This document shows, one piece after another, positions 1,306-51,937 of a DNA stretch of 64,000 bases (positions are counted from its first letter, which is position 1; each line of letters begins with the position of its first letter). Source of the DNA: Escherichia phage APCEc01. Both the position numbers and the translations under genes were made by a program. The notes below the pieces were generated by a model. It saw nothing but the letters and a program-made list of their open reading frames with translations, was not told the DNA's origin and searched no databases. The stretch lies in the sequence record NC_029091.1. One strand, written 5' to 3'.

Positions 1306-1827
1306 ATGGCACACTTTAACGAATGTTCACAACTTATTTCTGGTGTTGATAAAGCGGAAGAAGCTTATTTTAATGCTCTGATTCACGAAGATAAAGACCC
1401 ACTGCAGGTAATGCTTGATATGCAGAAATCTTTACAGGTTCGTCTGGCAAATGACAAGCCTGAACATAACAAACATCCTGATGAATTGGCCACTGCTGGT
1501 GATGTTGTTGATTGGCTGCGTAATCAGAAAGATTATATTGATGATGAATTCCGTGAACTGCTGACTTCACTTGGCGGTATGAGCAATGGTGAAAAAGCCG
1601 CCAGCAGTGTATGGAAGCCGTGGAAGGCACAACATGCTGAATATCGAAATCGTCGTATCGATGAACTGTCTCCTGAAGACCAGCTTGAAATTAAATTTGA
1701 AATGATTGATATTCTGCATTTCGTTCTAAATATGTTCCAAGGTCTAGGTCTTTCGGCTGAAGAAATCTTTAAACTTTACTACTTGAAAAACCAACACAAC
1801 TTTGAACGTCAGGATAATGGTTACTGA
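1306..1827 (+). CDS. 56: dCTP pyrophosphatase gp56 (MazG-like)
   Basis: Start MAHFNEC at ATG 1306 with RBS AAAGGA (track start 1291 is TTG); about 173 aa; matches T4 gp56 by recollection. Confidence 0.85.
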   Translation: MAHFNECSQLISGVDKAEEAYFNALIHEDKDPLQVMLDMQKSLQVRLANDKPEHNKHPDELATAGDVVDWLRNQKDYIDDEFRELLTSLGGMSNGEKAASSVWKPWKAQHAEYRNRRIDELSPEDQLEIKFEMIDILHFVLNMFQGLGLSAEEIFKLYYLKNQHNFERQDNGY

Positions 1828-2452: not shown

Positions 2453-2653
2453 ATGATGCCTATTCCTGATACACACGAAAAAAGTTGGGAATATATCGGT
2501 GACGGAATGATGGAAGAAGTTGTTCGTCCAAAAACAAAACAGGTTAATGCTTCAAGCTCTTCAAGTTATAATCATTCATACGTATCGTCTTGGCCTGGTG
2601 ATTCTGGGTCAAGTTATTCTGATTGTGGTTCAAGCTCAGGGAGCTGCGAATGA
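2453..2653 (+). CDS. hypothetical small protein with Ser-rich C-terminus
   Basis: 66 aa from ATG 2453; C-terminal SSSSSYNHSYVSSWPGDSGSSYSDCGSSSGSCE. Confidence 0.4.
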   Translation: MMPIPDTHEKSWEYIGDGMMEEVVRPKTKQVNASSSSSYNHSYVSSWPGDSGSSYSDCGSSSGSCE

Positions 2654-2829
2654 ACAAGATAGTTAAATGGTTTAAAAGCTGGGACGATGGTGTCGGTCCA
2701 GAAGATTGGCTGGATGTTCTTGAAGAGAATATGGCTAAAGAATTCAAGAAACATGAAGAAAAGCTCGTCGAAGATGAAGGCGGACGTATTGTAAAACTTT
2801 ATATGGGTGAACCATCGAGGAAATTATAA
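2650..2829 (+). CDS. hypothetical small protein
   Basis: 59 aa; ATG overlaps upstream stop (ATGA). Confidence 0.45.
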   Translation: MNKIVKWFKSWDDGVGPEDWLDVLEENMAKEFKKHEEKLVEDEGGRIVKLYMGEPSRKL

Positions 2830-3293
2830 TGGATGCTATGCTATTTAAAATGTATTTGCTTGAAGCCAAGTCATTTAAACATATACCAGTGGAAGATAAG
2901 ACTCCACTAGAAATAGCTATTCTCATTAACAAAAGTCTAAATAATCCGCAATATATCATAGAAGAATTCTGCAAATTGCAGATTCCTAAAGGTTACAAAA
3001 TTCGTGTAGAGCGAGTTGGAGCTATTACTCATTCTAAAAATTCTCCGTTTAGTCTTGAAGAAGGCATAAAGGACTTAGGTTATGAATCTACGGAAAATGC
3101 CGTTTATGTGAATCCAGAAAAGCGTTTAGATTTGTTTGAAAAGCGAGACCATAAGTATTTTGCCAAAAAATACTTTATTACATCATTAGCAGATTTAATC
3201 CATTTGCAACGAGCTATTTGGAAATTTTTTAAGACAAAAGGTGTAGCGCTAGAAACATTCTCTGAGCAGCCTAGTTTTTATTTAGGTGAATAA
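2829..3293 (+). CDS. hypothetical protein
   Basis: 154 aa; ATG overlaps upstream stop; no motif recognised. Confidence 0.5.
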   Translation: MDAMLFKMYLLEAKSFKHIPVEDKTPLEIAILINKSLNNPQYIIEEFCKLQIPKGYKIRVERVGAITHSKNSPFSLEEGIKDLGYESTENAVYVNPEKRLDLFEKRDHKYFAKKYFITSLADLIHLQRAIWKFFKTKGVALETFSEQPSFYLGE

Positions 3294-3294
3294 T

Positions 3295-3474
3295 ATGGAC
3301 CTTATGAGTATGTTTGACGAGCCTGAAGTTGAGGCTCCTAAAGTGCATCGTAGTGAACTTGTTGATGAACTAGATAGTATTATACAACGACATGGCTTTA
3401 GTTTACCTGTCGAAGCTCTGAAAGACCTTGCCTCTTATTATGACGACCCTCCACCATGGAGTCCTTGGAAATGA
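3295..3474 (+). CDS. hypothetical small protein
   Basis: 59 aa from ATG 3295 (track start 3286 is GTG). Confidence 0.4.
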   Translation: MDLMSMFDEPEVEAPKVHRSELVDELDSIIQRHGFSLPVEALKDLASYYDDPPPWSPWK

Positions 3475-3635
3475 AAGAGAAATTTAAAGAGAAATTCTTA
3501 CTAGAAATCAAGGAAAAAGACTTTGAGACATGGTATCGAATGGTGAAAGGGTTGACATTGCTTTTTAAAGCATCCTTATTCATGTTAAAACAACCTGGTC
3601 CTGATGGTCCTTTAGTAGGAAAGCTTAAAAAGTAG
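3471..3635 (+). CDS. hypothetical small protein
   Basis: 54 aa; ATGA overlap with upstream ORF; below the ORF-track length cut-off. Confidence 0.35.
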   Translation: MKEKFKEKFLLEIKEKDFETWYRMVKGLTLLFKASLFMLKQPGPDGPLVGKLKK

Positions 3636-11616: not shown

Positions 11617-13434
11617 ATGATTAAAAATGAAATTAAGGTATTGTCAGATGTAGAACATATTAAGAAACGTAGTGGTATGTATATTGGTTCTTCTGCTAAA
11701 GAAGCACATGAGCGTTTTTTGTTTGGTAAATATCAACAAGTTGAATATGTTCCTGGTCTGGTTAAATTAATCGATGAGATTATTGACAACTCGGTTGATG
11801 AAGCTATTCGTACATCATTTAAGTTTGCAAATAAAATTGATGTGCAAATTAAAAATAATCAAGTTTCGGTGGAAGATAACGGACGTGGTATTCCTCAAGG
11901 TTTAGTTACCGACCAAACAGGTGAACAAATTCCTGGGCCTGTAGCAGCCTGGACTATTCCAAAGGCTGGTGGTAACTTTGGTGATGACTCTGAACGCAAG
12001 ACTGGTGGTATGAACGGCGTCGGGAGTAGTTTAACTAATATCTTCTCTACGTTGTTTACAGGCATCACGTCAGATGGCGAAAATGAAATCACTGTTAACT
12101 GTTCAAACGGAATGGAAAACAAATCATGGTCTTCTAAGAAATCTAAAGGTAAAGGCACTAAAGTAATCTTCACTCCTGATTTCTCTTCATTTGAAGAGCA
12201 TAATTTATCTCAAATTTATTTAGATATTACTTTAGACCGACTTCAAACATTGGCAGTCGTTTATCCTGATATCAAGTTCACATTTAATGGTAAAAAGGTT
12301 GATGGTAATTTTAAACGATTTGCTAAACAATTTGGTGAAGATAACATCATTCAAGAAAATGATAAAGTCTCTATAGCATTCACAACATCACCAGATGGCT
12401 TCCGTCATTTAACTTATGTGAATAACATCCATACTAAAAATGGTGGTCATCATGTTGAATGTGTAATGGATGATATCTGCGAACATCTTTTGCCGGGTAT
12501 TAAAAAGAAATATAAGGGTATTGAAGTCACTAAAGCTCGTGTTAAAGAATGTCTCACAATGTTGATGTTTATTAGAGACATGAGCAACATGCGTTTTGAT
12601 TCTCAGACTAAAGAACGTTTAACGTCAACGTATGGTGATATTCGTAATCATATCCAATTAGATGCTAAGAAAATTGCTCAGGCACTTCTTAAAAACGAAG
12701 CCTTGATTATGCCTATTGTTGAAGCAGCATTAGCTCGTAAATTGGCAGCAGAAAAGGCTGCAGAAACTAAAGCAGCTAAAAAGGCAACTAAAGCTAAGGT
12801 TCATAAGCATATTAAAGCTAACCAATGTGGTAAAGATGCAGATACGACATTGTTTTTAACAGAAGGTGATTCGGCAATTGGTTATCTCATTGATGTTCGT
12901 GACCGTGAACTACACGGCGGATTCCCATTACGTGGTAAGGTGATGAATAGCTGGGGTATGTCATATGCTGATATGATGAAGAACAAAGAGCTCTTTGATA
13001 TCTGTGCTATCACGGGTCTTATTCTTGGTGAAAAGGCAGAGAATACGAACTATCGTAATATTGCAATTATGACCGATGCCGATCATGACGGTCTTGGAAG
13101 TATCTATCCGGCTTTGCTTGCTTTCTTTAGTAATTGGCCTGAATTGTTTGAACAAGGACGTATTCGCTTTGTTAAAACACCTGTAATTATTGCACAAATT
13201 GGCAAAGCTCAAAAATGGTTTTATACTGTAGCTGAGTATGAAGAAGTTAAAGATACACTGCCTAAGCATAGTATTCGATACATCAAGGGATTAGGCTCCC
13301 TTGAAAAGTCAGAATATCGTGAAATGATTCAGAACCCTGTGTACGACGTAGTTAAACTTCCTGAAAATTGGAAAGAACTCTTTGAAATGTTGATGGGTGA
13401 TGATTCAGAACTTCGTAAAGAATGGATGTCCTAA
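11617..13434 (+). CDS. 39: DNA topoisomerase II large subunit (GyrB-like ATPase), unsplit 39/60
   Basis: 605 aa; IIDNSVDEA GHKL motif; one continuous ORF covering what T4 splits into genes 39 and 60. Confidence 0.9.
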   Translation: MIKNEIKVLSDVEHIKKRSGMYIGSSAKEAHERFLFGKYQQVEYVPGLVKLIDEIIDNSVDEAIRTSFKFANKIDVQIKNNQVSVEDNGRGIPQGLVTDQTGEQIPGPVAAWTIPKAGGNFGDDSERKTGGMNGVGSSLTNIFSTLFTGITSDGENEITVNCSNGMENKSWSSKKSKGKGTKVIFTPDFSSFEEHNLSQIYLDITLDRLQTLAVVYPDIKFTFNGKKVDGNFKRFAKQFGEDNIIQENDKVSIAFTTSPDGFRHLTYVNNIHTKNGGHHVECVMDDICEHLLPGIKKKYKGIEVTKARVKECLTMLMFIRDMSNMRFDSQTKERLTSTYGDIRNHIQLDAKKIAQALLKNEALIMPIVEAALARKLAAEKAAETKAAKKATKAKVHKHIKANQCGKDADTTLFLTEGDSAIGYLIDVRDRELHGGFPLRGKVMNSWGMSYADMMKNKELFDICAITGLILGEKAENTNYRNIAIMTDADHDGLGSIYPALLAFFSNWPELFEQGRIRFVKTPVIIAQIGKAQKWFYTVAEYEEVKDTLPKHSIRYIKGLGSLEKSEYREMIQNPVYDVVKLPENWKELFEMLMGDDSELRKEWMS

Positions 13435-13449
13435 GCTCCTTCGGGAGCT
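13434..13449 (+). terminator. hairpin after gene 39
   Basis: AGCTCCTTCGGGAGCT hairpin followed by a U-rich tract. Confidence 0.5.
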
Positions 13450-13476
13450 TCATTTTAATTTTAATAAGGCTTAATT

Positions 13477-14577
13477 ATGAAAGTTATGTTTATCCCATCT
13501 CGTGCAGTCCCATTTAACCCAGAACGTGTACAAGGTGGTCTTGAAGCAGTACATTTAAATGTGTTGAAATATCTTGTGTCCATCGGTGCCGATATTGATT
13601 ATATTGGTTTTGATAATGACACATTTGGTGATTGGAAAGTTAATCATCATCCTGTTGGTCATCTGACTAAATTCAGTCTAGGTATGAGTTATACTATGGC
13701 TCGTAAGATTGTTGAACTAGCCGGCATCCATGAATACGATTTTGTTGTTACTATGGAACCGACTAAACTAACCGTTCAGGCAATTAAAGACGCAGGTCTC
13801 TCTAAAGTTCATAAGAATTTTATGGCAACACCATTTGAACCGGTATCTCGTGGCATTGTTCAAATTTGGGACCAGACTATTCAAATTCATAAGAATGGTG
13901 GTAAGAGTTATGCTCCTACTAAAGCCTTCCGTGAATTTGAACGTAAATATTGTTATATGACTTCAGGTCTGACTGACAAAATTGATTATGATTATTGGCG
14001 AGCAAATCCTTTGTTTGAAGCCGAAGATTATCCGGTTATTTGTTTGACTGAAAAGCCAGAAGTTCTTCCGGCGACGGATCTGATTATTAGTGCACAACGT
14101 TATGACACTAAAATGCGTCGTACTGATGTTGCTCTTGAAGCGATTAAAGCACTAGGCGAAAATGGTGCAGGATACTGTCCAAGCAAATGGGCGCCACCGG
14201 CTAAATATCCTGTTATTATTGATGCTCCACACAGTGAAATTATGGAACGTCTTAAAACAGCTAAAGCACTTATTAATACGTGTCCTGACACAGGTACGGT
14301 AGAGAATAGTTCTATTGAAGCCATCTCTAAAGGTGTCCCTGTAATCCAGTTAGTTTTTAAGGATTATCCTCATGCGACATTTGAATACGACCCAGATACT
14401 GTGCGTGTAGAAATTGATTCCTCTACTCCTAAGAAAGAAGTAGTTGCGCTTTACACAAAAGCTGTATTAGAATTCACTGACACATACGAAGCTCGAGTTA
14501 AACGTGCTGAAGCAGTATGGAAGAAGTATAACCGAGATGCAGTTGTTGCGATGTGGGATAAAATCTTCACAGCGTAA
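13477..14577 (+). CDS. putative glycosyltransferase (GT-B-like), candidate DNA hmC sugar transferase
   Basis: 366 aa; GT4-like N-terminus MKVMFIPS...GGLEAV; C-terminal ENSSIEAISKGVPVIQ resembles the GT-B donor-binding EAMAxGxPVV motif; lies between gene 39 and rIIA.1. Confidence 0.5.
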   Translation: MKVMFIPSRAVPFNPERVQGGLEAVHLNVLKYLVSIGADIDYIGFDNDTFGDWKVNHHPVGHLTKFSLGMSYTMARKIVELAGIHEYDFVVTMEPTKLTVQAIKDAGLSKVHKNFMATPFEPVSRGIVQIWDQTIQIHKNGGKSYAPTKAFREFERKYCYMTSGLTDKIDYDYWRANPLFEAEDYPVICLTEKPEVLPATDLIISAQRYDTKMRRTDVALEAIKALGENGAGYCPSKWAPPAKYPVIIDAPHSEIMERLKTAKALINTCPDTGTVENSSIEAISKGVPVIQLVFKDYPHATFEYDPDTVRVEIDSSTPKKEVVALYTKAVLEFTDTYEARVKRAEAVWKKYNRDAVVAMWDKIFTA

Positions 14578-14669
14578 ATCCTGAATAGCCTGAGGCACTA
14601 TTACACATAAGATGATAGATTATATGGTCTTTAGTAATAGTGCCCTAGGAATCTACTGAAGAGAATATT

Positions 14670-14870
14670 ATGAGAACATATAACGTGGACTTGGAACTTT
14701 TTGATAAAGCAGTGCTCCGGGAATTCCGGCTTATCCAAAGATTTTTTGATATCGAATCAGCAGAGTCCTTTAAAGAACGCTTTAAAGAAATTCGATATAA
14801 AATACAAACCGATACAGCTACTAAAGAAGAACTTCTTGAAGTAGCAGAAATTTTTAAACGTAACTTGTGA
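14670..14870 (+). CDS. rIIA.1-like small protein
   Basis: 66 aa immediately upstream of rIIA. Confidence 0.5.
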   Translation: MRTYNVDLELFDKAVLREFRLIQRFFDIESAESFKERFKEIRYKIQTDTATKEELLEVAEIFKRNL

Positions 14871-14882
14871 TGAGAGAAAAAT

Positions 14883-17096
14883 ATGATTATTGAAACGGCT
14901 AAAGAAACGATTATTGGTTCAGGCGGTAAGAGCACAGCATTCACTATTCAAGGCAATAGCAAAGTTTATAAGATTTTGTCTAATGACCTTTATACAAACA
15001 AAGAATTGGCTTGTGTACGTGAATTAATCACAAACTGTATCGATGGACAAATTCTTAATGGTTGCACTGATAAGTTTATTGTTCAGGCTCCAGGTCGTTT
15101 AGACCCACGTTTTGTAGTTCGAGACTTTGGTCCTGGTATGAGTGATTTCACCATTCGAGGTAATGACGAAGAGCCAGGAATCTATAACTCATATTTTGCT
15201 TCAACTAAAACATCGAGTAACGATTTCATTGGTGGATTCGGACTCGGCTCTAAAGCTCCATTAGCATATACCGATACGTTTAACCTTACGTCTTATCACA
15301 ACGGTGAAGTTCGTGGTTACGTAATCTACCAAGATGACACGGGTCCACAGATTAAGCCAACCTTCGTAGATAAGATGGGTCCTGATGACCGTACGGGTGT
15401 AGAAGTAGTTGTACCGGTTAACCCGGAAGATTTTGAAAAGTTCGCATCCGAAATTGCTTATGTTATGCGTCCTCTAGGTGATATTGCAGAAGTTCGTGGT
15501 GTTAAAGATATTAAATACTTTCCTGAATTTGATGATGTGTATTTGGCCAAGGAAGCTCCATGGGGTGAACGTGGTAATATCATGGCTGTTTATGGTGGTA
15601 TTGTATATCCAATCGGAAGTGTTATTAAAGAACAAACATGGATGATGACGCGATGCACTACAGCTTATATTAAATTCCCTATGGGTGAACTAGATGTAGC
15701 CCCGTCTCGTGAAGCATTGTCATTTGATAAACGTACAGTAGCAAATATCCATAAACGCGTTGCAGAAATCGATGCTAAATTGTTCGCTGAAGATTCTAAG
15801 AAATGGATTGATTGTAAATACCCACGTCATGTGTTCCGTGAAATTGATTCTCTTGGCTATACCGCTCGTAAATACATGGAAAAGGCTGGGTCTAATATTG
15901 AATCACTGAAATACTCTAAAGAACAACTAACTTATTCCGAGTTGTACAAACGTTTTAAAATGGGACCCGAATGGTGCAACCTTGGTGTTGTATATGATAT
16001 CGTTTCAGACCCACGACTTCGTCGTATTCGTGAAAGTGGTAGCTCATCGGCAACTATTTCAATTAACAGTCTGATTGGTATTAACATTAAAAACGTTGAA
16101 ATTGTTATTGACGACGTTAAGGGACGCGTTCCATTAATGCGAGCTCTTAATTCAATTGAAATGACTAAAGACGAGGTTAAATTAACCGGTAAAGTTCCAC
16201 GCGGTTTTGGTAAAAGCGTACTATTCGTTGACCCTACAGACGAAGATGCAATGAAACTTCTGGAACGCCTTAAAGTTATCTTTGATGGCGACAACATTAA
16301 CATGTACAAGACTTCAGAGCTTTTACAAATCGTTAAGCCATGGATTGAAGTCAAGACTCGTTCTAATGGGCCTCGTCCTAAATCCCCAAGTGCTCATCGG
16401 TTCTTTAAGAATGAAAACGATGTTTGGGTATCAGAAGATCTCTTTATTCCGGCAAGTGAAGCAGATGAAATCCAAGGTTATGCTATAGTTCGTAATCGTT
16501 CTAATGCTGAATGTCTTGACGCAGATAAAGGTTGGTTGAACTATGACTCCAATTTCTTGACCCGTATTGCTGATTTGTCAGGTATTAAAGAGTTCACTGT
16601 AGTCCGTCCACAGATTGCTAAGAAAGTTCGTAAACTTGGTGAAGTAGAATGCTTGTTCGAAAAATCAATTAACGACTATATTACGCTAATCGATAAAGTA
16701 GATTATGATGAGTATGTATCACCAAGTCGTAGAGCACAGCCCTATCTAAACCATATTACTCGTAACGAAGAGCTTAACTTCCTTAGTAAGTATTTTAGCT
16801 CTAAGAACAAAGAAATCAGTAAAGACTTTGCAAAACTCTCCACAGTAAATAATCGCTGGGGATGGAATCGATTCGCAGGTGCTACTAATACAGACCTGAA
16901 TAAGAAGTTAGAATTGTGTGCTAAAATTTTCGATAAGCTTAAAGATAATGCTTACGATAATGATGATAAAATGGTTATTGAATTCGAAACCAATTATCAT
17001 ATTGTGACAGAATACATGGGACGACGTGGTACTCTTTCCAAAGAACAGGTCGCTCAAATCGTTAAATTCATGAAGGCCGTGGAAGCGGCCAAATAA
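14883..17096 (+). CDS. rIIA: rIIA protein
   Basis: 737 aa; size and position match T4 rIIA (725 aa). Confidence 0.85.
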   Translation: MIIETAKETIIGSGGKSTAFTIQGNSKVYKILSNDLYTNKELACVRELITNCIDGQILNGCTDKFIVQAPGRLDPRFVVRDFGPGMSDFTIRGNDEEPGIYNSYFASTKTSSNDFIGGFGLGSKAPLAYTDTFNLTSYHNGEVRGYVIYQDDTGPQIKPTFVDKMGPDDRTGVEVVVPVNPEDFEKFASEIAYVMRPLGDIAEVRGVKDIKYFPEFDDVYLAKEAPWGERGNIMAVYGGIVYPIGSVIKEQTWMMTRCTTAYIKFPMGELDVAPSREALSFDKRTVANIHKRVAEIDAKLFAEDSKKWIDCKYPRHVFREIDSLGYTARKYMEKAGSNIESLKYSKEQLTYSELYKRFKMGPEWCNLGVVYDIVSDPRLRRIRESGSSSATISINSLIGINIKNVEIVIDDVKGRVPLMRALNSIEMTKDEVKLTGKVPRGFGKSVLFVDPTDEDAMKLLERLKVIFDGDNINMYKTSELLQIVKPWIEVKTRSNGPRPKSPSAHRFFKNENDVWVSEDLFIPASEADEIQGYAIVRNRSNAECLDADKGWLNYDSNFLTRIADLSGIKEFTVVRPQIAKKVRKLGEVECLFEKSINDYITLIDKVDYDEYVSPSRRAQPYLNHITRNEELNFLSKYFSSKNKEISKDFAKLSTVNNRWGWNRFAGATNTDLNKKLELCAKIFDKLKDNAYDNDDKMVIEFETNYHIVTEYMGRRGTLSKEQVAQIVKFMKAVEAAK

Positions 17097-17105
17097 GGAA
17101 ACATT

Positions 17106-18053
17106 ATGTACAATATCAAATGCTTGTCCCAAGAAGAACAGTTAGAAGCTTACGGCCTGGTTGAATCAGGCAAATGGACTCGTAAAGAAATTGCCGATTA
17201 CTTCGACATTTCAACAGATACTCTTCGTAAGATTGTTAAGAATTTTAAAGCAGAAGGCGTTGCCCCTGAAGCAAACGATGCCTCTTATGTAATCGAAGAA
17301 GTTCCAGAAAATGATGAACCTATTATCGGCGGACATCGTCCTGAAATCGTATGGAACGCGTCATCTAAATTTATTTCAATTATTGAAGGACGCGTAGCAT
17401 ACAATGCGACTCCATCAAGTCATGCAAATTTTGAAGAAATTAAAGCTAATCTGGTCGCAGGAAACCTTAGTAAAGCTGTCGAACTTATTAACATCAAGAA
17501 AGCTATTACTAAGTTTGTTGATGGTAATGTTACTATTGAAGGTGGTAGTTTATTTTATCAAGGTATAGAGATTCGTTCAGGGCTGGTTAACCGTATTATT
17601 GATTCTATGGAAAAAGGTGAAGACTTTAAATTCTATCTGCCATTCCTTGAAAACCTGTTAGAAAACCCAAGCGAAAAAGCTGTACAACGTTTATTCGACT
17701 TCTTGGTTGCAAACGATATTGAAATCACTGAAGATGGTCATTTCTATGCGTGGAAAGTAGTTCGTAAGGACTATTTAGACTGCTATAGTGGTACATTTGA
17801 TAACTCCCCAGGTAAAGTTGTTTCAATGCCTCGTACTCGAGTTAACGACGATGATACTCAAACCTGTTCTCGCGGTCTCCATGTTTGTGCTAAATCTTAT
17901 ATTCGCCACTTTGGTTCAAGCTCAGATAAAGTTGTGAAAGTTAAAGTTCATCCACGTGATGTTGTATCCATCCCAGTTGACTATGGTGATGCTAAGATGC
18001 GTACTTGTCGTTACGAAGTAATTTCAGACGTTACTGAATTATTTGCAGAATAA
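17106..18053 (+). CDS. rIIB: rIIB protein
   Basis: 315 aa directly after rIIA; matches T4 rIIB (312 aa). Confidence 0.85.
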   Translation: MYNIKCLSQEEQLEAYGLVESGKWTRKEIADYFDISTDTLRKIVKNFKAEGVAPEANDASYVIEEVPENDEPIIGGHRPEIVWNASSKFISIIEGRVAYNATPSSHANFEEIKANLVAGNLSKAVELINIKKAITKFVDGNVTIEGGSLFYQGIEIRSGLVNRIIDSMEKGEDFKFYLPFLENLLENPSEKAVQRLFDFLVANDIEITEDGHFYAWKVVRKDYLDCYSGTFDNSPGKVVSMPRTRVNDDDTQTCSRGLHVCAKSYIRHFGSSSDKVVKVKVHPRDVVSIPVDYGDAKMRTCRYEVISDVTELFAE

Positions 18054-18383: not shown

Positions 18384-18876
18384 GTTTTTGACTAGCGAAA
18401 TGAAAGTGAAGATTGCTGACACCGCTCGGTATTCCCTGAGCCAAAATCCAGACCAAAACAAAGAAGATGTAGTTCGACGTTGTAAGGTTGCAGTCTTTGC
18501 AGAGTATGTAGTAGCAAATTGGCTAGACGGATATGTTAATAAAGGTATTGAAGATGTAGAAGACCCGTACACGTATGCATGGGACGTGTTAGCCCATCCC
18601 AAATATTGTGGAATTCGTGTAGAAGTCAAGACACATCAGATGGATTCTAAATGGATTTCTGTTACCACAGGATACAGTGGTGATTATCCGGGTGGTAATG
18701 GAATCAATATAGGGCCCTTCTTGAATCATCGAGTCGCAGATTGTATTATTATATTAGATGTCAAAGAAACCTCACCTGACGTCTTCTCTTATTCTATAAA
18801 GTTCGTGGGAGACCATGAAGACCTAAAGAAAATCGTCCGCAAGAGCAACTACAACGGGTGGTATCTTCATCTTTAA
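18319..18876 (+). CDS. PD-(D/E)xK-like nuclease, candidate endonuclease IV (denB)
   Basis: 185 aa from ATG 18319 with SD AGAGGT (alternative ATG 18400 gives 158 aa); WDVL...GIRVEVK resembles a PD-(D/E)xK core; position after rIIB as T4 denB. Confidence 0.4.
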   Translation: MVKTNLGLLRLKSLPTFILSNEFLTSEMKVKIADTARYSLSQNPDQNKEDVVRRCKVAVFAEYVVANWLDGYVNKGIEDVEDPYTYAWDVLAHPKYCGIRVEVKTHQMDSKWISVTTGYSGDYPGGNGINIGPFLNHRVADCIIILDVKETSPDVFSYSIKFVGDHEDLKKIVRKSNYNGWYLHL

Positions 18877-26376: not shown

Positions 26377-29300
26377 TTATGCTAAACGAACGATATAGTT
26401 AAAAGCAACGTTTTTAACTGTGTTTTCTGTATTTCCTGTGGCATTTACAGTTATTGTATGTCCATGGGAACCAATTGCAACAGTATGAGAATGAGCACCA
26501 ATACCTACCGAATGGGTATGAGCACCAATACCCACAGTATGAGCATGGTTACCAGTAGCGCTAGTAGTTCCTGACCAACTATGAGTGTGGGCACCGTCTG
26601 AAGAAGTTTTGGCTATATTCGACCGTGCAGTAGCACCGTTCACGGTTCCAGTGAATTTAGCGTCGGCGTTTGCACCTACACTATTATATCCGTCATAGAA
26701 TATGTTATTGGATATGTCGGCTCGTATCTGAGGACCTGAACGCGCGTGTTGGTGCGCACCAGCGGAACTAGTATTACCACTCACTGTATGGTTATGGTTA
26801 CCAGTGGTATTACTGGTCTTAGTACCATAATCAAAGCTTGAAGTCGTTTTGCTACCATAATCAAAACTTGACGTATTTTTAGTACCCAAATCTGTGCTTG
26901 ATGCACTTGCACTATGGCTATGAGCCTTAACACCGTCTGCTTCTGTACTCAATACAGCACGCCCAGATGGTTTACCCTTGATAGTTTGACCACGCATATC
27001 AGGCAGAGTGCCGGAAGGATACACCGCAGCTAACTTAGGATACAAGTCAGCATCAAATGTTTGACCTTCCATTATGGCATAACCTTCAGGAGGTGTATCA
27101 GTAGGCCAAGGAATCGGAGCACCAATTGGGTAACTCGAGACAATATCCGTCTTAAGGTTATTTATTGTTGTATTCAAGTTAGCAAAATTACCAGAACCAC
27201 CAGTGATATTACCATCAGTACCGAATTGAGCATTTCCGACTTTAAGAGGTTTAGTAATATCGACAGAATCAGAGTTTAATGCAATACCATGTGAATATGT
27301 GTAGCTGTGCATACGAACGACGTTGCCGCCATCGCCAATACCTAAATACCATTTCGGAACATCTGCTTTACGTCCTTGAATGAAGTTAGAAGACTTTTGT
27401 GTTGGAGCATTTATTCTAATAGCATCTGATGCCATATTTACTGTTATGCGTTGACCAGCCGTAGTTCCAGCCGCTTCTACTTTAAATCTACCGCCGCCGA
27501 TATCTACATCATGATCCATGGAAACTTTACCATTACTTAATGTAATATAGAACGGACGTAAATTAGAAATACCACCTGATTCACCAGCATTCTGCGGAGT
27601 TGGAATAATATAAAACTTATCTTCAGAACGACGGAAAATAGCACCATATTCAGCATCGTAAATACGGAAAGCATCAGCAGTCCCGCCAATTTTAACCTGT
27701 CCGGTAATTGAGGCACCACCTTGAACAAACAATCCATTATTCATTGTAACGTTGCCAACTAGAGTGCTTAATCCGTTAACTCTAAGACTTCCGTCGGTTA
27801 TTAAGCTTCCTCTAGCATTAACCTGTCCATTGAACTGAGTTACAACAGGGCCTGTAGTTTCAGAACCGGTCGGAGCTACACGCTGCGCATAAAAATAATA
27901 ACCTTGCCCATCTGATACTTCAAAAACTGATTCACGAGATTTATCACCTGAAGCGTTAAAGGCATTACCCCACGCTTTAATAGATACATAACTTTTATTC
28001 TGGCCCGCGCGAGTACCGCCAGCCCACAGTATAGTTTTAGTGCCATCTATTGCTGTAGGAGCGTCAAGTTGAATACCATCGGGTCTAGCACCAGTAAGAA
28101 CTAACCCGTTATCAAATTTAATTCTTTGTATTGAAGATACTGTGCCGTCTGCTCTAAGATTTAATTCGTTAACCCCGGTCTTAATATTTAAAATACCGGG
28201 TTCAACAATAAGACCTTCACCCATTGAAATAGCTACTCGGCCAGTACCACGAAAATAGTGATAAAGTTTACCGTTACTGTTATAGCCAAGATGTGTTTGT
28301 CCATCGCCAGAGTTATTACCATCTATTTCGGTTCTGATAGAAACCATTGCAGAGTTTTGACCTGGTAAAATCCATGTGGCACCTTGGTCGGTACTGCGTC
28401 CAAATATGGTTTTGCTTGTGCCACGGAAACCATCGGAAGTAACAGAAGCAACAGAATAACCTCCGCCTACTAAATCAAAATTACCTTGTTTAATATATTT
28501 CAGACCAGTTACAGTGTCGCCGAGAACAAGATACTTATCGCCCATTACACCGACGTTACCATAATCACTAGACGGGAAATCTGTAGTGAATGTACCTAAT
28601 GCAAGGCTATTACGGCCAGCCATTCGGCCATCGTTACGAATACCATACTGTTTTGACTGTGGAGTATTACCTGTCCACCAAGACATTTCATCGGCTTGGC
28701 CTAATTGAGCAGTACAAAGCTCATGCCACATAGTGCCACCGGATTTGGCACGAACTCTACGAAGATAGTTTACACCATTCGTTTCACCGGTGCCCGGGTA
28801 TACATACTTAACTAATGAATCCGTATCATATACACCAAATGCTTTGCCATCGTGAATAACAGTATCAACCCCAATGCGTTTAGTTAATAACGAATCTGAT
28901 GCTAAAATACGGTTGGCTTGAAATTCACCGCCGTTTATAGAACGGAAATAGAATTCACTATTGGTAGTACTTCCTGTTCCTTGTCTAACCCTAAGACGTA
29001 TTTCACCATCAGTTGTAGTTTGAGGACGAGCATATATAACGCCACGTTCAGTGCCATCGGCATTTTCAAACCAAAGATGGGCATTTGCTGTTTCACCGGT
29101 TGAAGCTCTTGAATAAAACGAACCTTGCAATGCTCTAAAAACTTGAGCTGAAATACTACTACCAGCGGTAATCTGGCCACTTGTGGAAAAATTTCCAAAA
29201 TTGTTTATTGGTCCATTGACGCGTAAAGTTCCATCAATAGTTACATTTCCACTGATATTACCGCCAGCGGAAATGCTTAAATCGATGATATTTCCTGAAT

Positions 29301-44823: not shown

Positions 44824-45234
44824 ATGAAAGATATCGCCGCCGAATATTCCTTTATTAAATATACAGAATTGGAGCTATTAGAAGATGCAACAATTAAAAC
44901 AGTTGATGTCCCTAATAAGAAAAATGTCATATATGCTATTGCTATAGATGACGAACTTGTGTATATTGGTAAAACCAAGAATTTAAAGAAACGCATTAAC
45001 TATTATCGAACAGCCATAAATCGAAAAGACCAGACTTCAGATTCAAGAAAATCACTTATGATTTTGGATGCCTTAATGCAAGGCAAAAAGGTTGAATTCT
45101 GGGCCCGCCAATGTTTTGACCTTTCAGTCACCAACGAACTTGGTTCAATGACCATCGCAACAATGGACCTTGAAGAACCGCTTTTTATCAAAAAGTTCAA
45201 CCCGCCTTGGAATATCCAACATAAGAAAAAGTAG
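44824..45234 (+). CDS. denA: endonuclease II (GIY-YIG family)
   Basis: 136 aa as T4 DenA; GIY-YIG-like VYIGKTKNLKKRINYY. Confidence 0.8.
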   Translation: MKDIAAEYSFIKYTELELLEDATIKTVDVPNKKNVIYAIAIDDELVYIGKTKNLKKRINYYRTAINRKDQTSDSRKSLMILDALMQGKKVEFWARQCFDLSVTNELGSMTIATMDLEEPLFIKKFNPPWNIQHKKK

Positions 45235-50363: not shown

Positions 50364-51356
50364 ATGTTACCTGTCGTCGGAAAACTTATTTCTCCAAAAG
50401 AACTGGCTGAGATTATTCCTTTGTCGGAAGCTTACGCGTCACAAGTGGTTTCTCATCGCGAACAAGTTAATTCGATTATGAACGGTGAAGACCCACGCAA
50501 ACTTATTGTTGTAGGTCCTTGTTCAATTCATGACCCTATTGCTGCTGTTGAATACGGCAAACGTCTGGCTGAACTTCAAACTCGTCTTCCTAATGTTCTG
50601 TTAGTGATGCGCGTTTATTTTGAAAAGCCTCGAACTACCGTAGGTTGGAAAGGTCTTGTAAATGATCCATATCTTGACGGAAGTTTTGATATGAACCACG
50701 GTCTTATAGTTGCACGAACATTGTGTCGTAAACTTCTACGTATGGGACTTCCATTAGCAACTGAAGTATTAGACCCATTCACGATTAAGTATCTTTCTGG
50801 TATTTTCTCATGGGTTGCTATTGGCGCCCGTACGACTGAAAGTCAGACACATCGTGAAATTGCTTCAGGTCTACCGATGTGCGTAGGCTTCAAGAACGCA
50901 ACCAATGGTTCTATTAAAGTAGCTACAGACGCGATGTATAGTGCCGCCTGGCCTCATCGGTATATGGGTATGGACGTCGATGGTACTGTAGGCATTGTTG
51001 AAGCTGAAGGTAATCAGAATACGCATATCGTATTGCGTGGTGGGACCAACGGTCCGAACTATCATTCTTCTGATATTCAAGAAGCTTCTAACAAAGCAAG
51101 GGCAGTAGGTCTGAATCATTATGTAATGGTTGACTGTAGCCATGCAAACGCTGATGGGCATTATAGCAATCAAATTGGTATTGGTAAAAATTTAGCAGCT
51201 AATGATTTGGTCAAAGGAATTATGATAGAATCGTTCCTACATGAAGGAAATCAAAAAATTTCTGATAATATGTCCTATGGCGTTTCCGTTACCGATGCGT
51301 GCATCAGTTGGGAACAAACTAAAGAGCTGTTAACTTATATTAATAAGGTTCAATAA
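50364..51356 (+). CDS. 3-deoxy-D-arabino-heptulosonate-7-phosphate (DAHP) synthase, class I (AroG/AroF/AroH-like)
   Basis: 330 aa; GPCSIHD, YFEKPRTTVGWKGL, GARTTESQ.HRE.ASGL, CSHAN, HEGNQ and TDACI.WE align with E. coli AroG, including the metal-ligand Cys/His/Glu/Asp positions. Confidence 0.85.
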   Translation: MLPVVGKLISPKELAEIIPLSEAYASQVVSHREQVNSIMNGEDPRKLIVVGPCSIHDPIAAVEYGKRLAELQTRLPNVLLVMRVYFEKPRTTVGWKGLVNDPYLDGSFDMNHGLIVARTLCRKLLRMGLPLATEVLDPFTIKYLSGIFSWVAIGARTTESQTHREIASGLPMCVGFKNATNGSIKVATDAMYSAAWPHRYMGMDVDGTVGIVEAEGNQNTHIVLRGGTNGPNYHSSDIQEASNKARAVGLNHYVMVDCSHANADGHYSNQIGIGKNLAANDLVKGIMIESFLHEGNQKISDNMSYGVSVTDACISWEQTKELLTYINKVQ

Positions 51357-51937
51357 TGAAAGCTAGCACATACCTTCAGATTGCATATCTGATTTCTCAA
51401 GAATCAAAATGTTGTTCATGGAAAGTTGGCGCCGTCATTGAAAAAGATGGACGCATTATTTCTACAGGTTATAATGGCTCTCCTTCAGGTGGTACAAACT
51501 GTTGCGAACATGCATCCGAAAACGGTTGGTTGAAGAATAAACCAAGCCCGGTCATCGTTGCTGGTCATAAAGAAGGCACTACAGCATTTGGACGGGCAGA
51601 TAATTTTGTTTTGGCTAAAGAACATCGGGCCGCTCATAGTGCATGGTCTGCTAATAACGAAATCCATGCTGAATTGAATGCCATTTTGTTTGCTGCTCGC
51701 AAAGGTAATTCTATTGAAGGTGCTACGTTGTATACGACACTTTCTCCGTGTCCTGATTGCACTAAAGCTATTACACAGTCAGGTATTAAAAAGGTTGTAT
51801 ATGCAGAATTATATGACCGATCTCCTGAAAATTGGGCAGACATTCTTAAACAAGCTGGTATTGAAGTAATTCAGTACTCTCGTAATAATCTTCGTTCTCT
51901 GAATTGGGAACAAATTCGAAACTTTTGTGGTGAATAA
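51356..51937 (+). CDS. cd: dCMP deaminase
   Basis: 193 aa; zinc motifs HAELNAI and SPCPDC; near-colinear with T4 Cd. Confidence 0.95.
   Translation: MKASTYLQIAYLISQESKCCSWKVGAVIEKDGRIISTGYNGSPSGGTNCCEHASENGWLKNKPSPVIVAGHKEGTTAFGRADNFVLAKEHRAAHSAWSANNEIHAELNAILFAARKGNSIEGATLYTTLSPCPDCTKAITQSGIKKVVYAELYDRSPENWADILKQAGIEVIQYSRNNLRSLNWEQIRNFCGE

Follow-up and report, generated by a model that had tools for sequence, protein, structure and literature searches.

The 366-aa open reading frame between gene 39 and rIIA.1 of Escherichia phage APCEc01 probably encodes a DNA arabinofuranosyltransferase of the Mosigvirus gp3 type, an enzyme that would add the second arabinose to arabinosylated 5-hydroxycytosine. 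We give this reading a probability of about three in four. The gene is already known as an RB69 ORF003c/gp3-type sugar transferase, and nothing in its identification goes beyond the literature of 2018 to 2026. The argument rests on near-identical relatives, a predicted fold, published nucleoside chemistry, the activity of homologs and the distribution of two transferase families among phages.

Identity and setting of the gene

The reading frame is a real gene, as judged from the scarcity of non-synonymous codon changes relative to RB69 and JK45 together with a full-length match to PHROG 8302 (residues 1-366 of 366, E 3e-222). Twenty synonymous and three non-synonymous codon differences separate it from the RB69 and JK45 orthologs, and one synonymous site differs from the ortholog in phage moha; these comparisons point to strong purifying selection. 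The protein is 100% identical to moha gp182. RB69 ORF003c/gp3 (NP_861693), the relative to which a first-pass annotation of this DNA had linked it, differs by 3 amino acids (97.9% nucleotide identity), and the gene order rIIA-rIIA.1-ORF003c-39 is common to APCEc01 and RB69. The 'phage HY126 glycosyltransferase' of PDB entries 9IQZ and 9IR0 is identical at 357 of 364 residues (98%), and its seven substitutions leave the family-invariant residues untouched. From their titles we take these entries, released in 2025, to be the apo form (9IQZ) and the complex with UDP (9IR0). The RB69 and HY126 genes are thus the same gene as that of APCEc01, with no difference of substance, and the term 'uncharacterised' used in the first-pass annotation no longer fits a protein whose 98%-identical counterpart has been crystallised with and without UDP.

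The locus is unlike that of T4, which carries mobA, 60.1, 60 and rIIA.1 between 39 and rIIA and, as had been stated, no transferase there; T4 b-gt adjoins gene 42 and a-gt adjoins gene 47. The features of the locus, and those elsewhere in the window (the whole 64-kb stretch of record NC_029091.1 that was analysed), are collected in the table. The hairpin at the gene-39 stop may be a terminator-like or mRNA-stabilising element separating that gene from the transferase.

Table. Features of the APCEc01 window that bear on the transferase gene
Feature	Position	Strand	Remarks
Gene 56 dCTPase	1306..1827	+	97% identical to moha_157
Gene 39 topoisomerase subunit, 605 aa	11617..13434		Stop 42 nt before transferase ORF
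UUCG-tetraloop hairpin AAGCTCC-TTCG-GGAGCTT, then CATTTTAATT	13433..13450	+	Overlaps gene-39 stop codon; from terminator-like scan
Shine-Dalgarno-like AAGG	13467..13470	+	6 nt 5' of transferase ATG; read from sequence
366-aa CDS	13477..14577	+	ATG-to-TAA ORF; ortholog of RB69 ORF003c/gp3 and HY126 glycosyltransferase; GT-B, predicted UDP-binding DNA arabinofuranosyltransferase
GGLEAV, codons G20-G21	13534..13539	+	Gly-rich loop after beta-1, N-terminal Rossmann domain; invariant in 8-member alignment
R208-x5-R214 (QRYDTKMR)	14098..14118	+	Position of GT4-type 'R...K' phosphate-binding pair, start of C-terminal domain
E276-NSSI-E281 (TGTVENSSIEAISKGVPV)	14302..14319	+	Putative donor-binding motif of C-terminal domain
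rIIA.1	14670..14870		Starts 92 nt beyond transferase ORF
rIIA	14883..17096		Beyond rIIA.1
denB	18400..18873		Within window
denA	44824..45231		Within window
cd	51356..51934		Within window

The window is Mosigvirus (RB69-like phage) DNA, and its closest relative across the first 25 kb is NicPhage, at 97.7%. Gene 56 dCTPase clears dCTP, so that a modified dCTP analogue is incorporated, and it is the sole other member of the cytosine-replacement pathway in the window. RB69p028 is among the pathway members in Table 1 of PMC13326640. No 5hodCMP synthase, UDP-Araf pathway or first arabinosyltransferase lies within the 64-kb window. The window opens with the primase gene, which by the gene order of relatives lies about 7 kb downstream of the modification cluster. 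In moha, the 5hodCMP synthase, the arabinose-nucleotide pathway and the first arabinosyltransferase all lie between DNA polymerase and uvsX, and relatives 97-98% identical suggest that APCEc01 would carry the rest of the pathway as well.

Fold and donor-site motifs

Searches of the APCEc01 protein returned no Pfam family at a maximum E-value of 10, neither Glycos_transf_1 (PF00534) nor Glyco_trans_4 among them, and no NCBIfam family at a maximum E-value of 1. With these two collections blank, the glycosyltransferase nature of the protein is visible only through its fold or the near-identical PDB entry. A gp3-family profile run against all PDB sequences likewise found 9iqz and 9ir0 alone, with no remote glycosyltransferase matches, and when 1.84 billion representatives were searched by profile, 11 proteins emerged, every one a gp3-family member or fragment. 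GenBank records often call the gene 'hypothetical protein' or 'DNA alpha-glucosyltransferase'.

An AlphaFold2 model built from a 14-sequence alignment (pLDDT 91.7, pTM 0.88), used in place of a poorer one from 6 sequences (pLDDT 60.9), superposes on 9iqz with a TM-score of 0.97 and an rmsd of 1.3 Å, and on the UDP complex 9ir0 with a TM-score of 0.95. The next-best Foldseek matches are GT4-like GT-B enzymes, namely PimA (2gej), BshA (3mbo), MshA (3c4q), WaaG and a BH4 glucosyltransferase, and the GT4 protein BA1558 is also in the top matches. PimA, BshA, MshA, WaaG and BA1558 score E-values of 1e-11 to 1e-9 with TM-scores of about 0.6; for the first four the Foldseek probability is 1.0 and the TM-score 0.6-0.66, at 10-14% identity. 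The protein is accordingly modelled as a two-Rossmann-domain GT-B fold, and the first-pass call of a GT-B glycosyltransferase is borne out.

Three motifs are expected to form the donor site, and the strings originally quoted for the protein (MKVMFIPS..., GGLEAV and ENSSIEAISKGVPVIQ) are all present in the reading frame. In GT-B enzymes the Gly-rich loop after beta-1 usually touches the donor phosphates, and by analogy the GGLEAV loop would have the same role here. Thomas et al. (2018) aligned its Gly-20 with Gly-15 of T4 alpha-GT, a beta-phosphate contact. At the second motif, Q207, R208, D210 and R214 are invariant in the 8-member alignment; the model places a strand at 203-206 ahead of it and a helix at 216-229 behind. 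Judged from motif position, R208 and R214 are plausible equivalents of the GT4 phosphate-binding pair. Thomas et al. (2018) aligned 'Arg-207' with Arg-204 of T4 alpha-GT, another beta-phosphate contact; the invariant Arg here is R208. In the third motif and around it, G273, T274, E276, S279, E281, A282, I283, G286, P288 and V289 are invariant in the same alignment, and Thomas et al. (2018) equated E281 with Glu-311 of T4 alpha-GT, which binds ribose. E94, H299, E303 and D305 are further invariant residues of the family.

With PimA, BshA, MshA and WaaG the APCEc01 enzyme thus shares the GT-B fold, the N-terminal Gly-Gly loop, the R-x5-R/K pair and the C-terminal '...E-A-x-x-x-G-x-P-V' donor motif. 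It differs from GT4 enzymes in its predicted acceptor, a sugar on DNA, and in the spacing of its acidic pair, which in the gp3 family is E-x4-E and not the canonical GT4 E-x7-E; the residue eight positions ahead of E281 is the invariant G273. The earlier description of the protein as GT4-like is therefore sound for the fold, which is closest to GT4 structures, but finds no counterpart in Pfam or NCBIfam matches or in an E-x7-E motif.

DNA chemistry and the choice of substrate

Arabinose, not glucose, was found in RB69 DNA by Thomas et al. (2018), who proposed ORF003c as 'the' arabinosyltransferase. In the DNA of RB69 and of the Mosigvirus NicPhage this arabinose is ether-linked to 5-hydroxycytosine, not hmC (PMC13326640, PMC13390438), and the Mosigvirus modification is β-D-Araf-(1→3)-α-D-Araf-O-5-hydroxycytosine, not arabosyl-hmC. 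The ratio of 5-ara-dC to 5-ara-ara-dC measured in NicPhage DNA was about 1:4. RB69 DNA carries one alpha- and one beta-linked Araf; DLP3 DNA carries one alpha and two beta. The proposal that this DNA belongs to a non-glucose sugar pathway is thus upheld by the arabinose of RB69 and NicPhage, and the proposal that it is hmC-based is contradicted by their 5-hydroxycytosine. That second proposal had been drawn from dCTPase 56, cd, denA and a denB-like gene, all of which are indeed located in the window. It is the ThyA-like 5hodCMP synthase that tells 5hoC from hmC, not dCTPase, cd, denA or denB. This synthase, encoded outside the window, is just 25% identical to T4 gp42; the moha protein is 99% identical to RB69 gp48, an experimentally confirmed 5hodCMP synthase.

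The same chemistry bears on whether the protein could be a T4 alpha-GT-like enzyme that glucosylates hmC. HX01 and several Acinetobacter phage records annotate the gene as 'DNA alpha-glucosyltransferase', HHpred gave remote similarity to T4 alpha-GT (Thomas et al. 2018), and among the fold neighbours a cyanophage 'DNA alpha-GT' matches weakly, at rank 30 (TM-score about 0.5). The sugar in RB69 DNA, however, is arabinose, and the base in RB69 and NicPhage is 5hoC, with no glucosyl-hmC in the published chemistry of either phage; moreover, an arabinose-nucleotide pathway adjoins the ThyA-like gene in these genomes. Searches with T4 a-gt and b-gt (tblastn) matched neither the window nor the whole genome of moha, the closest complete genome (best E 0.04 to 10), which answers the proposed check for T4-type enzymes. 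The nucleoside chemistry already published in effect refutes a T4-like glucosyltransferase identity, and we attach almost no credence to it. The T4 alpha- and beta-glucosyltransferases (GT72 and GT63) nevertheless resemble the gp3 type as phage GT-B enzymes that decorate modified cytosine after replication, use a UDP-sugar and serve restriction evasion. They differ in sugar, base and acceptor: glucose, 5hmC and a base hydroxyl in T4, against arabinofuranose, 5hoC and a sugar hydroxyl for the gp3 type.

Functional evidence for the arabinose reading comes from the Acinetobacter phage DLP3, whose gp77 and gp76 align with the APCEc01 protein over their full length (43% identity, E 6e-109, and 41%, E 5e-99) and share its invariant motifs. 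In vitro, the two proteins together transfer a third arabinose from UDP-Araf onto RB69 virion DNA (PMC13326640). They extend an existing chain on arabinosylated 5hoC DNA, with no action on 5hoC-only DNA, and single DLP3 transferases are inactive alone. Because of that inactivity, a partner requirement may hold for the APCEc01 enzyme too. The DLP3 genes are tandem paralogs (58% mutually identical) within the modification cluster, whose products must act together to add the third sugar; Mosigvirus, in contrast, has a single gene of this family, at the rIIA locus, and its DNA carries no more than two sugars.

A further possibility is that the enzyme glycosylates something other than DNA, such as a nucleotide precursor, a host envelope glycan or a protein of phage or host, and that its link to DNA arabinosylation is only correlative. 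Lipids, small molecules and LPS are indeed the substrates of the enzymes with the closest solved folds, and in Mosigvirus some 22 kb separate the gene from the modification cluster. Set against this, the gp76/77 homologs work on purified virion DNA, and in Acinetobacter phages the gp3-family copies are embedded in the modification cluster, directly downstream of genes for A5P-isomerase, kinase/uridylyltransferase, HAD, ThyA-like, GT1 and kinase proteins. Every gp3-family group, one Tegunavirus record apart, also has the first transferase. We consider a non-DNA target quite improbable.

Which arabinose, and by what mechanism

Lee et al. (2026) name RB69 gp3 'beta-arabinosyltransferase 2'. In the published scheme, RB69 gp46:47 is assigned the alpha step that joins sugar to base, and gp3 is proposed for the second, beta-linked arabinose; the experimentally confirmed activities in Lee et al. 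(2026) are those of DLP3 gp76/77 and the ThyA homologs only. Our literature search, incomplete in coverage, turned up no experiment in which RB69 gp3 or the APCEc01 protein was assayed directly. The enzyme could instead be the base-proximal first transferase, placing alpha-D-arabinose on the modified cytosine, with gp46:47 as the chain extender; in essence this is the model of Thomas et al. (2018) and of the first-pass annotation, with 5hoC as the base. Its close structural neighbours in Foldseek are all retaining enzymes of GT4, GT5 or GT20 type, and a retaining enzyme supplied with UDP-alpha-D-Araf would give an alpha linkage, as is found beside the base. If retaining, the APCEc01 enzyme would therefore better fit the alpha step, and it was ORF003c that Thomas et al. 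(2018) proposed as the arabinosyltransferase.

The distribution of the two families argues for the opposite order. The gp46:47 family occurs in 347 phage records of many genera, in every arabinosylating lineage and always beside the 5hodCMP synthase. The gp3 family is missing from most of these lineages: its 210 phage records comprise Mosigvirus, Acinetobacter phages and one Tegunavirus record, with no Shewanella record among them. Shewanella phage Thanatos-1, which Lee et al. (2026) describe as mono-arabinosylated, has one transferase candidate from the two families, of the gp46:47 type. Copy number agrees: Mosigvirus, with di-arabinosyl DNA, has one gp3-family gene and the tri-arabinosyl Acinetobacter phages have two in tandem, while each has one first transferase, so that gp3-family copies follow the count of beta linkages and not the single alpha linkage. 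The gp76/77 homologs, as extenders inactive on 5hoC-only DNA, also speak against a base-proximal role, and the UDP-alpha-D-Araf anomer on which that role depends is an assumption. On balance we think it unlikely. The first-pass candidate for an arabinosyl-hmC enzyme is right as to the glycosyltransferase and its RB69 link, wrong as to the base, and probably wrong as to the base-attaching step, which is assigned to gp46:47.

The first transferase (RB69 gp46:47, moha_140, DLP3 gp79) belongs to the same pathway and presumably uses the same donor, and Lee et al. predict a GT-B-like fold for it. It is shorter, at 299 aa, than the APCEc01 enzyme. Homology between the two was considered and set aside, as BLASTP detected no similarity.

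For the preferred reading, a second-step transferase, we propose the following sequence. The ThyA-like flavoenzyme encoded outside the window would make 5hodCMP, and 5-hydroxy-dCTP would replace dCTP during phage DNA replication. The unrelated first transferase, an ortholog of RB69 gp46:47 also encoded outside the window, would then put alpha-D-arabinofuranose on the cytosine 5-oxygen. The APCEc01 enzyme, acting on polymerised DNA, would carry out the second (beta-1,3) step: binding its UDP-sugar in the cleft between its two Rossmann domains, it would move a second D-arabinofuranose from phage-made UDP-arabinofuranose to O3 of the first sugar. The product would be beta-D-Araf-(1->3)-alpha-D-Araf-O5-cytosine on most cytosines, a bulkier disaccharide that could shield the genome more broadly from restriction enzymes and CRISPR nucleases.

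To yield a beta product from UDP-alpha-D-Araf, the expected (assumed) donor, the enzyme would have to be inverting, and the beta product assigned to the APCEc01 enzyme misfits the retaining GT4 mechanism if that is the donor. The gp3 family might be an inverting beta-D-arabinofuranosyltransferase on an otherwise retaining GT4-like scaffold, with the non-canonical E-x4-E, a suggestion that we regard as tentative and rather doubtful; the HY126 structure work may already address it. If true, it would set the gp3 family apart by mechanism from other GT-B enzymes, as one devoted to lengthening sugar chains on DNA.

The annotation of this gene should read DNA arabinofuranosyltransferase (gp3/ORF003c family). 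As a practical marker, a gp3-family gene in a T4-like phage would lead one to expect DNA with di-arabosylated or longer 5-hydroxycytosine. Such DNA bears on sequencing, on restriction and CRISPR sensitivity, and on host range in phage therapy.

Identity and surroundings of the transferase gene

The transferase encoded between gene 39 and rIIA.1 is already known and not new: it is RB69 gp3, the HY126 glycosyltransferase. Megablast matches to its gene come from 162 phage records, all of them T4-like coliphages or Shigella phages, among them phage moha of the genus Mosigvirus (99.9% identity) and RB69, where positions 2520..3620 are RB69ORF003c (97.9%). RB69 also shares the gene order rIIA, rIIA.1, ORF003c, 39. 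Moha is collinear with the window at 96-99% identity except for a tail-fibre segment and one insertion, and NicPhage is the best match to the first 25 kb (97.7%). Given this identity, the shared order and the relatives of the window, the transferase gene is RB69 ORF003c itself, beyond the mere likeness to an RB69 rIIA-proximal candidate suggested in the first-pass annotation.

The reading frame is real and exact (see table). The gene is plainly functional: its differences from RB69 and Shigella phage JK45 (MK962757) comprise 20 synonymous and only 3 non-synonymous codons, and its one codon difference from moha is synonymous. T4 indeed has no transferase at this locus, carrying mobA, 60.1, 60 and rIIA.1 between 39 and rIIA. 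The transferase gene occupies the slot of mobA, 60.1 and 60. T4 has this gene split into 39 and 60, with mobA/60.1 inserted and a translational bypass in gene 60; the window has none of these, gene 39 being one undivided frame. The spacer from gene 39 to the transferase is 42 nt.

Features of the window
Feature	Position	Strand	Remarks
dCTPase 56	1306..1824
Gene 39 topoisomerase subunit	11617..13434		605 aa; upstream of transferase; ORF listing
UUCG-tetraloop hairpin	13433..13450		terminator-like; after gene 39; terminator-like scan
AAGG ribosome-binding site			6 nt 5' of transferase ATG
Transferase	13477..14577	+	366 aa, ATG..TAA; single long ORF; ORF listing
rIIA.1	14670..14870		downstream of transferase
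rIIA	14883..17096
rIIB	17106..18053
denB	18400..18873
denA	44824..45231
cd	51356..51934

Within the 92-nt spacer from the transferase stop to rIIA.1 lies an inverted repeat, AGGCACTATTAC ... GTAATAGTGCC (14593-14646, loop ~30 nt), which a simple terminator scan did not call. In JK45, the intact transferase gene is directly followed by a 503-bp tandem partial duplication (JK45 L012 1794-2204 corresponds to window 14185-14684). This creates a chimeric 136-aa frame joining the first five rIIA.1 codons (MRTYN) to transferase residues ~237-366, a model of which is held in BFVD. The duplication could be real or an assembly artefact. Only at 27134-29284 does megablast align the window poorly or not at all with moha (88% over 540 bases, then a gap). 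This stretch corresponds to moha_206, the moha gene for the long tail fibre, and its divergence is the usual host-range mosaicism.

Family and fold

Pfam and NCBIfam scans of the transferase detected no family, and PHROG 8302, to which the gp3 family corresponds, is listed as "unknown function". A word-indexed search of 5.8 billion proteins gave 5 clusters; run in full against 1.84 billion representatives, a HMMER profile retrieved only 11 proteins. Against all PDB sequences, the family profile had a single match, 9iqz/9ir0 (E 5e-196). Foldseek lists the two entries as "phage HY126 glycosyltransferase" and "...with UDP", with a release date of 2025-07-16. The HY126 chain is identical to the window transferase at 357 of 364 residues (98%), and an AF2 model built from 14 family sequences (pLDDT 91.7, pTM 0.88) superimposes on 9iqz with TM 0.97 (rmsd 1.3 Å) and on 9ir0 with TM 0.95. 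The glycosyltransferase call of the first-pass annotation is thus borne out, though the enzyme can no longer be termed uncharacterised, having both a crystal structure and a proposed role in 5-hydroxycytosine (5hoC) arabinosylation. He et al. 2026 (Nat Chem Biol) reportedly worked on phage HY126, and Mahler et al. 2025 (Cell Host Microbe) is said to include an Aat deletion in Bas46.

Residues invariant in a family alignment reaching down to 35% identity are G20-G21-L22, E94, T118-P119, R125 and G142, followed by Q207-R208-x-D210, R214, N267-T268-C269, G273-T274-x-E276, S279, E281-A282-I283, G286, P288-V289, Q291-L292 and H299-A300-T301-x-E303-x-D305-P306. By position they match the glycine loop of GT-B enzymes, the phosphate-binding basic pair and the donor-binding helix. 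The acidic pair is spaced E-x4-E, in contrast to E-x7-E in GT4, and we therefore did not file the transferase as GT4.

The next structural neighbours are GT4-like GT-B enzymes (10-14% identity, TM ~0.6), including BH4 glucosyltransferase, PimA 2gej, BshA 3mbo, LmbT, MshA and WaaG, in agreement with Table 1 of Lee et al. (PMC13326640). Among viral models, the nearest matches outside the family are Rhizobium and Sinorhizobium phage glycosyltransferases, with cyanophage "DNA alpha-GT" no higher than rank 30.

DNA chemistry and the modification pathway

The presence of dCTPase 56, cd, denA and a denB-like gene, all located in the window, had been taken to indicate hmC-based DNA. Any T4-like phage that replaces cytosine shares these genes; they are not hmC-specific markers. 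RB69 DNA contains arabinose, and ORF003c was nominated as an "ara-hmC" arabinosyltransferase by HMM/HHpred and Phyre2, without biochemistry (Thomas et al. 2018, PMC6024577). MS/MS and NMR later showed the cytosines of RB69 to be 5hoC bearing one or two arabinoses, the disaccharide being beta-D-Araf-(1->3)-alpha-D-Araf, ether-linked to C5; Acinetobacter phage DLP3 adds a third Araf, beta-(1->5) (Lee et al. 2026, NAR, PMC13326640). Mosigvirus NicPhage has 5-ara-dC and 5-ara-ara-dC at ~1:4, and the earlier hmC assignment has been called erroneous (Durham Collection paper, PMC13390438). The hmC claim is outdated.

In RB69, the ThyA-like flavoenzyme gp48 makes 5-hydroxy-dCMP; gp55, gp52:53 and gp51 make UDP-Araf; gp46:47 is the proposed first transferase, and gp3 the proposed "beta-arabinosyltransferase 2" (PMC13326640). 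The other modification genes are absent from the whole 64-kb window. Their moha counterparts occupy the interval from DNA polymerase to uvsX (moha_133 to moha_141), in a cluster that stops ~7 kb before the window begins, on its upstream side. With RB69 gp48, a confirmed 5hodCMP synthase, the ThyA-like protein of moha shares 99% identity, and with T4 gp42 only 25%. T4 alpha-gt and beta-gt, whose presence the first-pass annotation had proposed to check, have no homolog in the window or anywhere in moha.

Directly upstream of cd, at 50364-51356 (+), is a gene for a 330-aa AroG-like DAHP synthase (Pfam PF00793, E 5e-75), which is not in moha and turns up in 144 phage records, most of them from Mosigvirus. 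It is a known auxiliary metabolic gene. The DAHP synthase family includes KDO8P synthase, whose substrate is arabinose-5-phosphate, so it might be connected to the arabinose pathway.

Members of the gp3 family, orthologs or paralogs, are annotated 'DNA alpha-glucosyltransferase' in HX01 (NC_018855) and in Acinetobacter phages Apostate, Stupor, PhaR5, DLP1, DLP2, DLP3 and others. Since the published chemistry is arabinose on 5hoC, these labels are very probably mis-annotations that will propagate.

The arabinosylation step

Transferase activity has been shown only for DLP3 gp76 and gp77, which together, with UDP-Araf, add a third arabinose onto RB69 virion DNA and are inactive singly (PMC13326640). 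Both are full-length homologs of the window transferase (gp77, 43%, E 6e-109; gp76, 41%) and are 58% identical to each other. No sequence similarity was found between the transferase and the first transferase. By tblastn, 210 phage records have a gp3-family member: those of Mosigvirus, at a single place each; those of 55 Acinetobacter phages, at two places in each record listed; and one of Tegunavirus. The first transferase occurs in 347 records, from phages of Escherichia, Klebsiella, Serratia, Yersinia, Proteus, Edwardsiella, Pseudomonas, Acinetobacter and Shewanella (Thanatos-1). Thanatos is reported to be mono-arabinosylated, with a single transferase (PMC13326640). The first-transferase gene and the alpha linkage number one each everywhere, while RB69 has one gp3-family gene and one beta linkage, and DLP3 two of each. 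In DLP1 and DLP3, two gp3-family homologs directly follow the modification cluster (A5P-isomerase, kinase/uridylyltransferase, HAD, ThyA-like, first transferase, kinase). Homology to gp76 and gp77, phyletic spread, the match of copy number to linkage number and cluster position support gp3 as a putative chain-extending beta-arabinofuranosyltransferase.

The accessible literature reports no assay of the exact window transferase. Its close structural neighbours are all retaining enzymes, yet a beta product is assigned to it. With UDP-alpha-D-Araf as donor, an assumption drawn from what other sugar-1-phosphate uridylyltransferases make, the transferase would either have to invert or be a better fit for the alpha step. 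Against the evidence from DLP3 homology, spread and copy number, we consider it unlikely that the transferase performs the alpha step. The two transferases, gp3 and the first, are assigned opposite anomers and share no sequence similarity, which at least fits a pair of enzymes that differ in mechanism.

One Tegunavirus-classified record carries a gp3-family homolog, and in phage EP32B (OR544955) the match comes in two pieces, which may reflect a frameshift. Either phage could serve as a natural test case for arabinose number.
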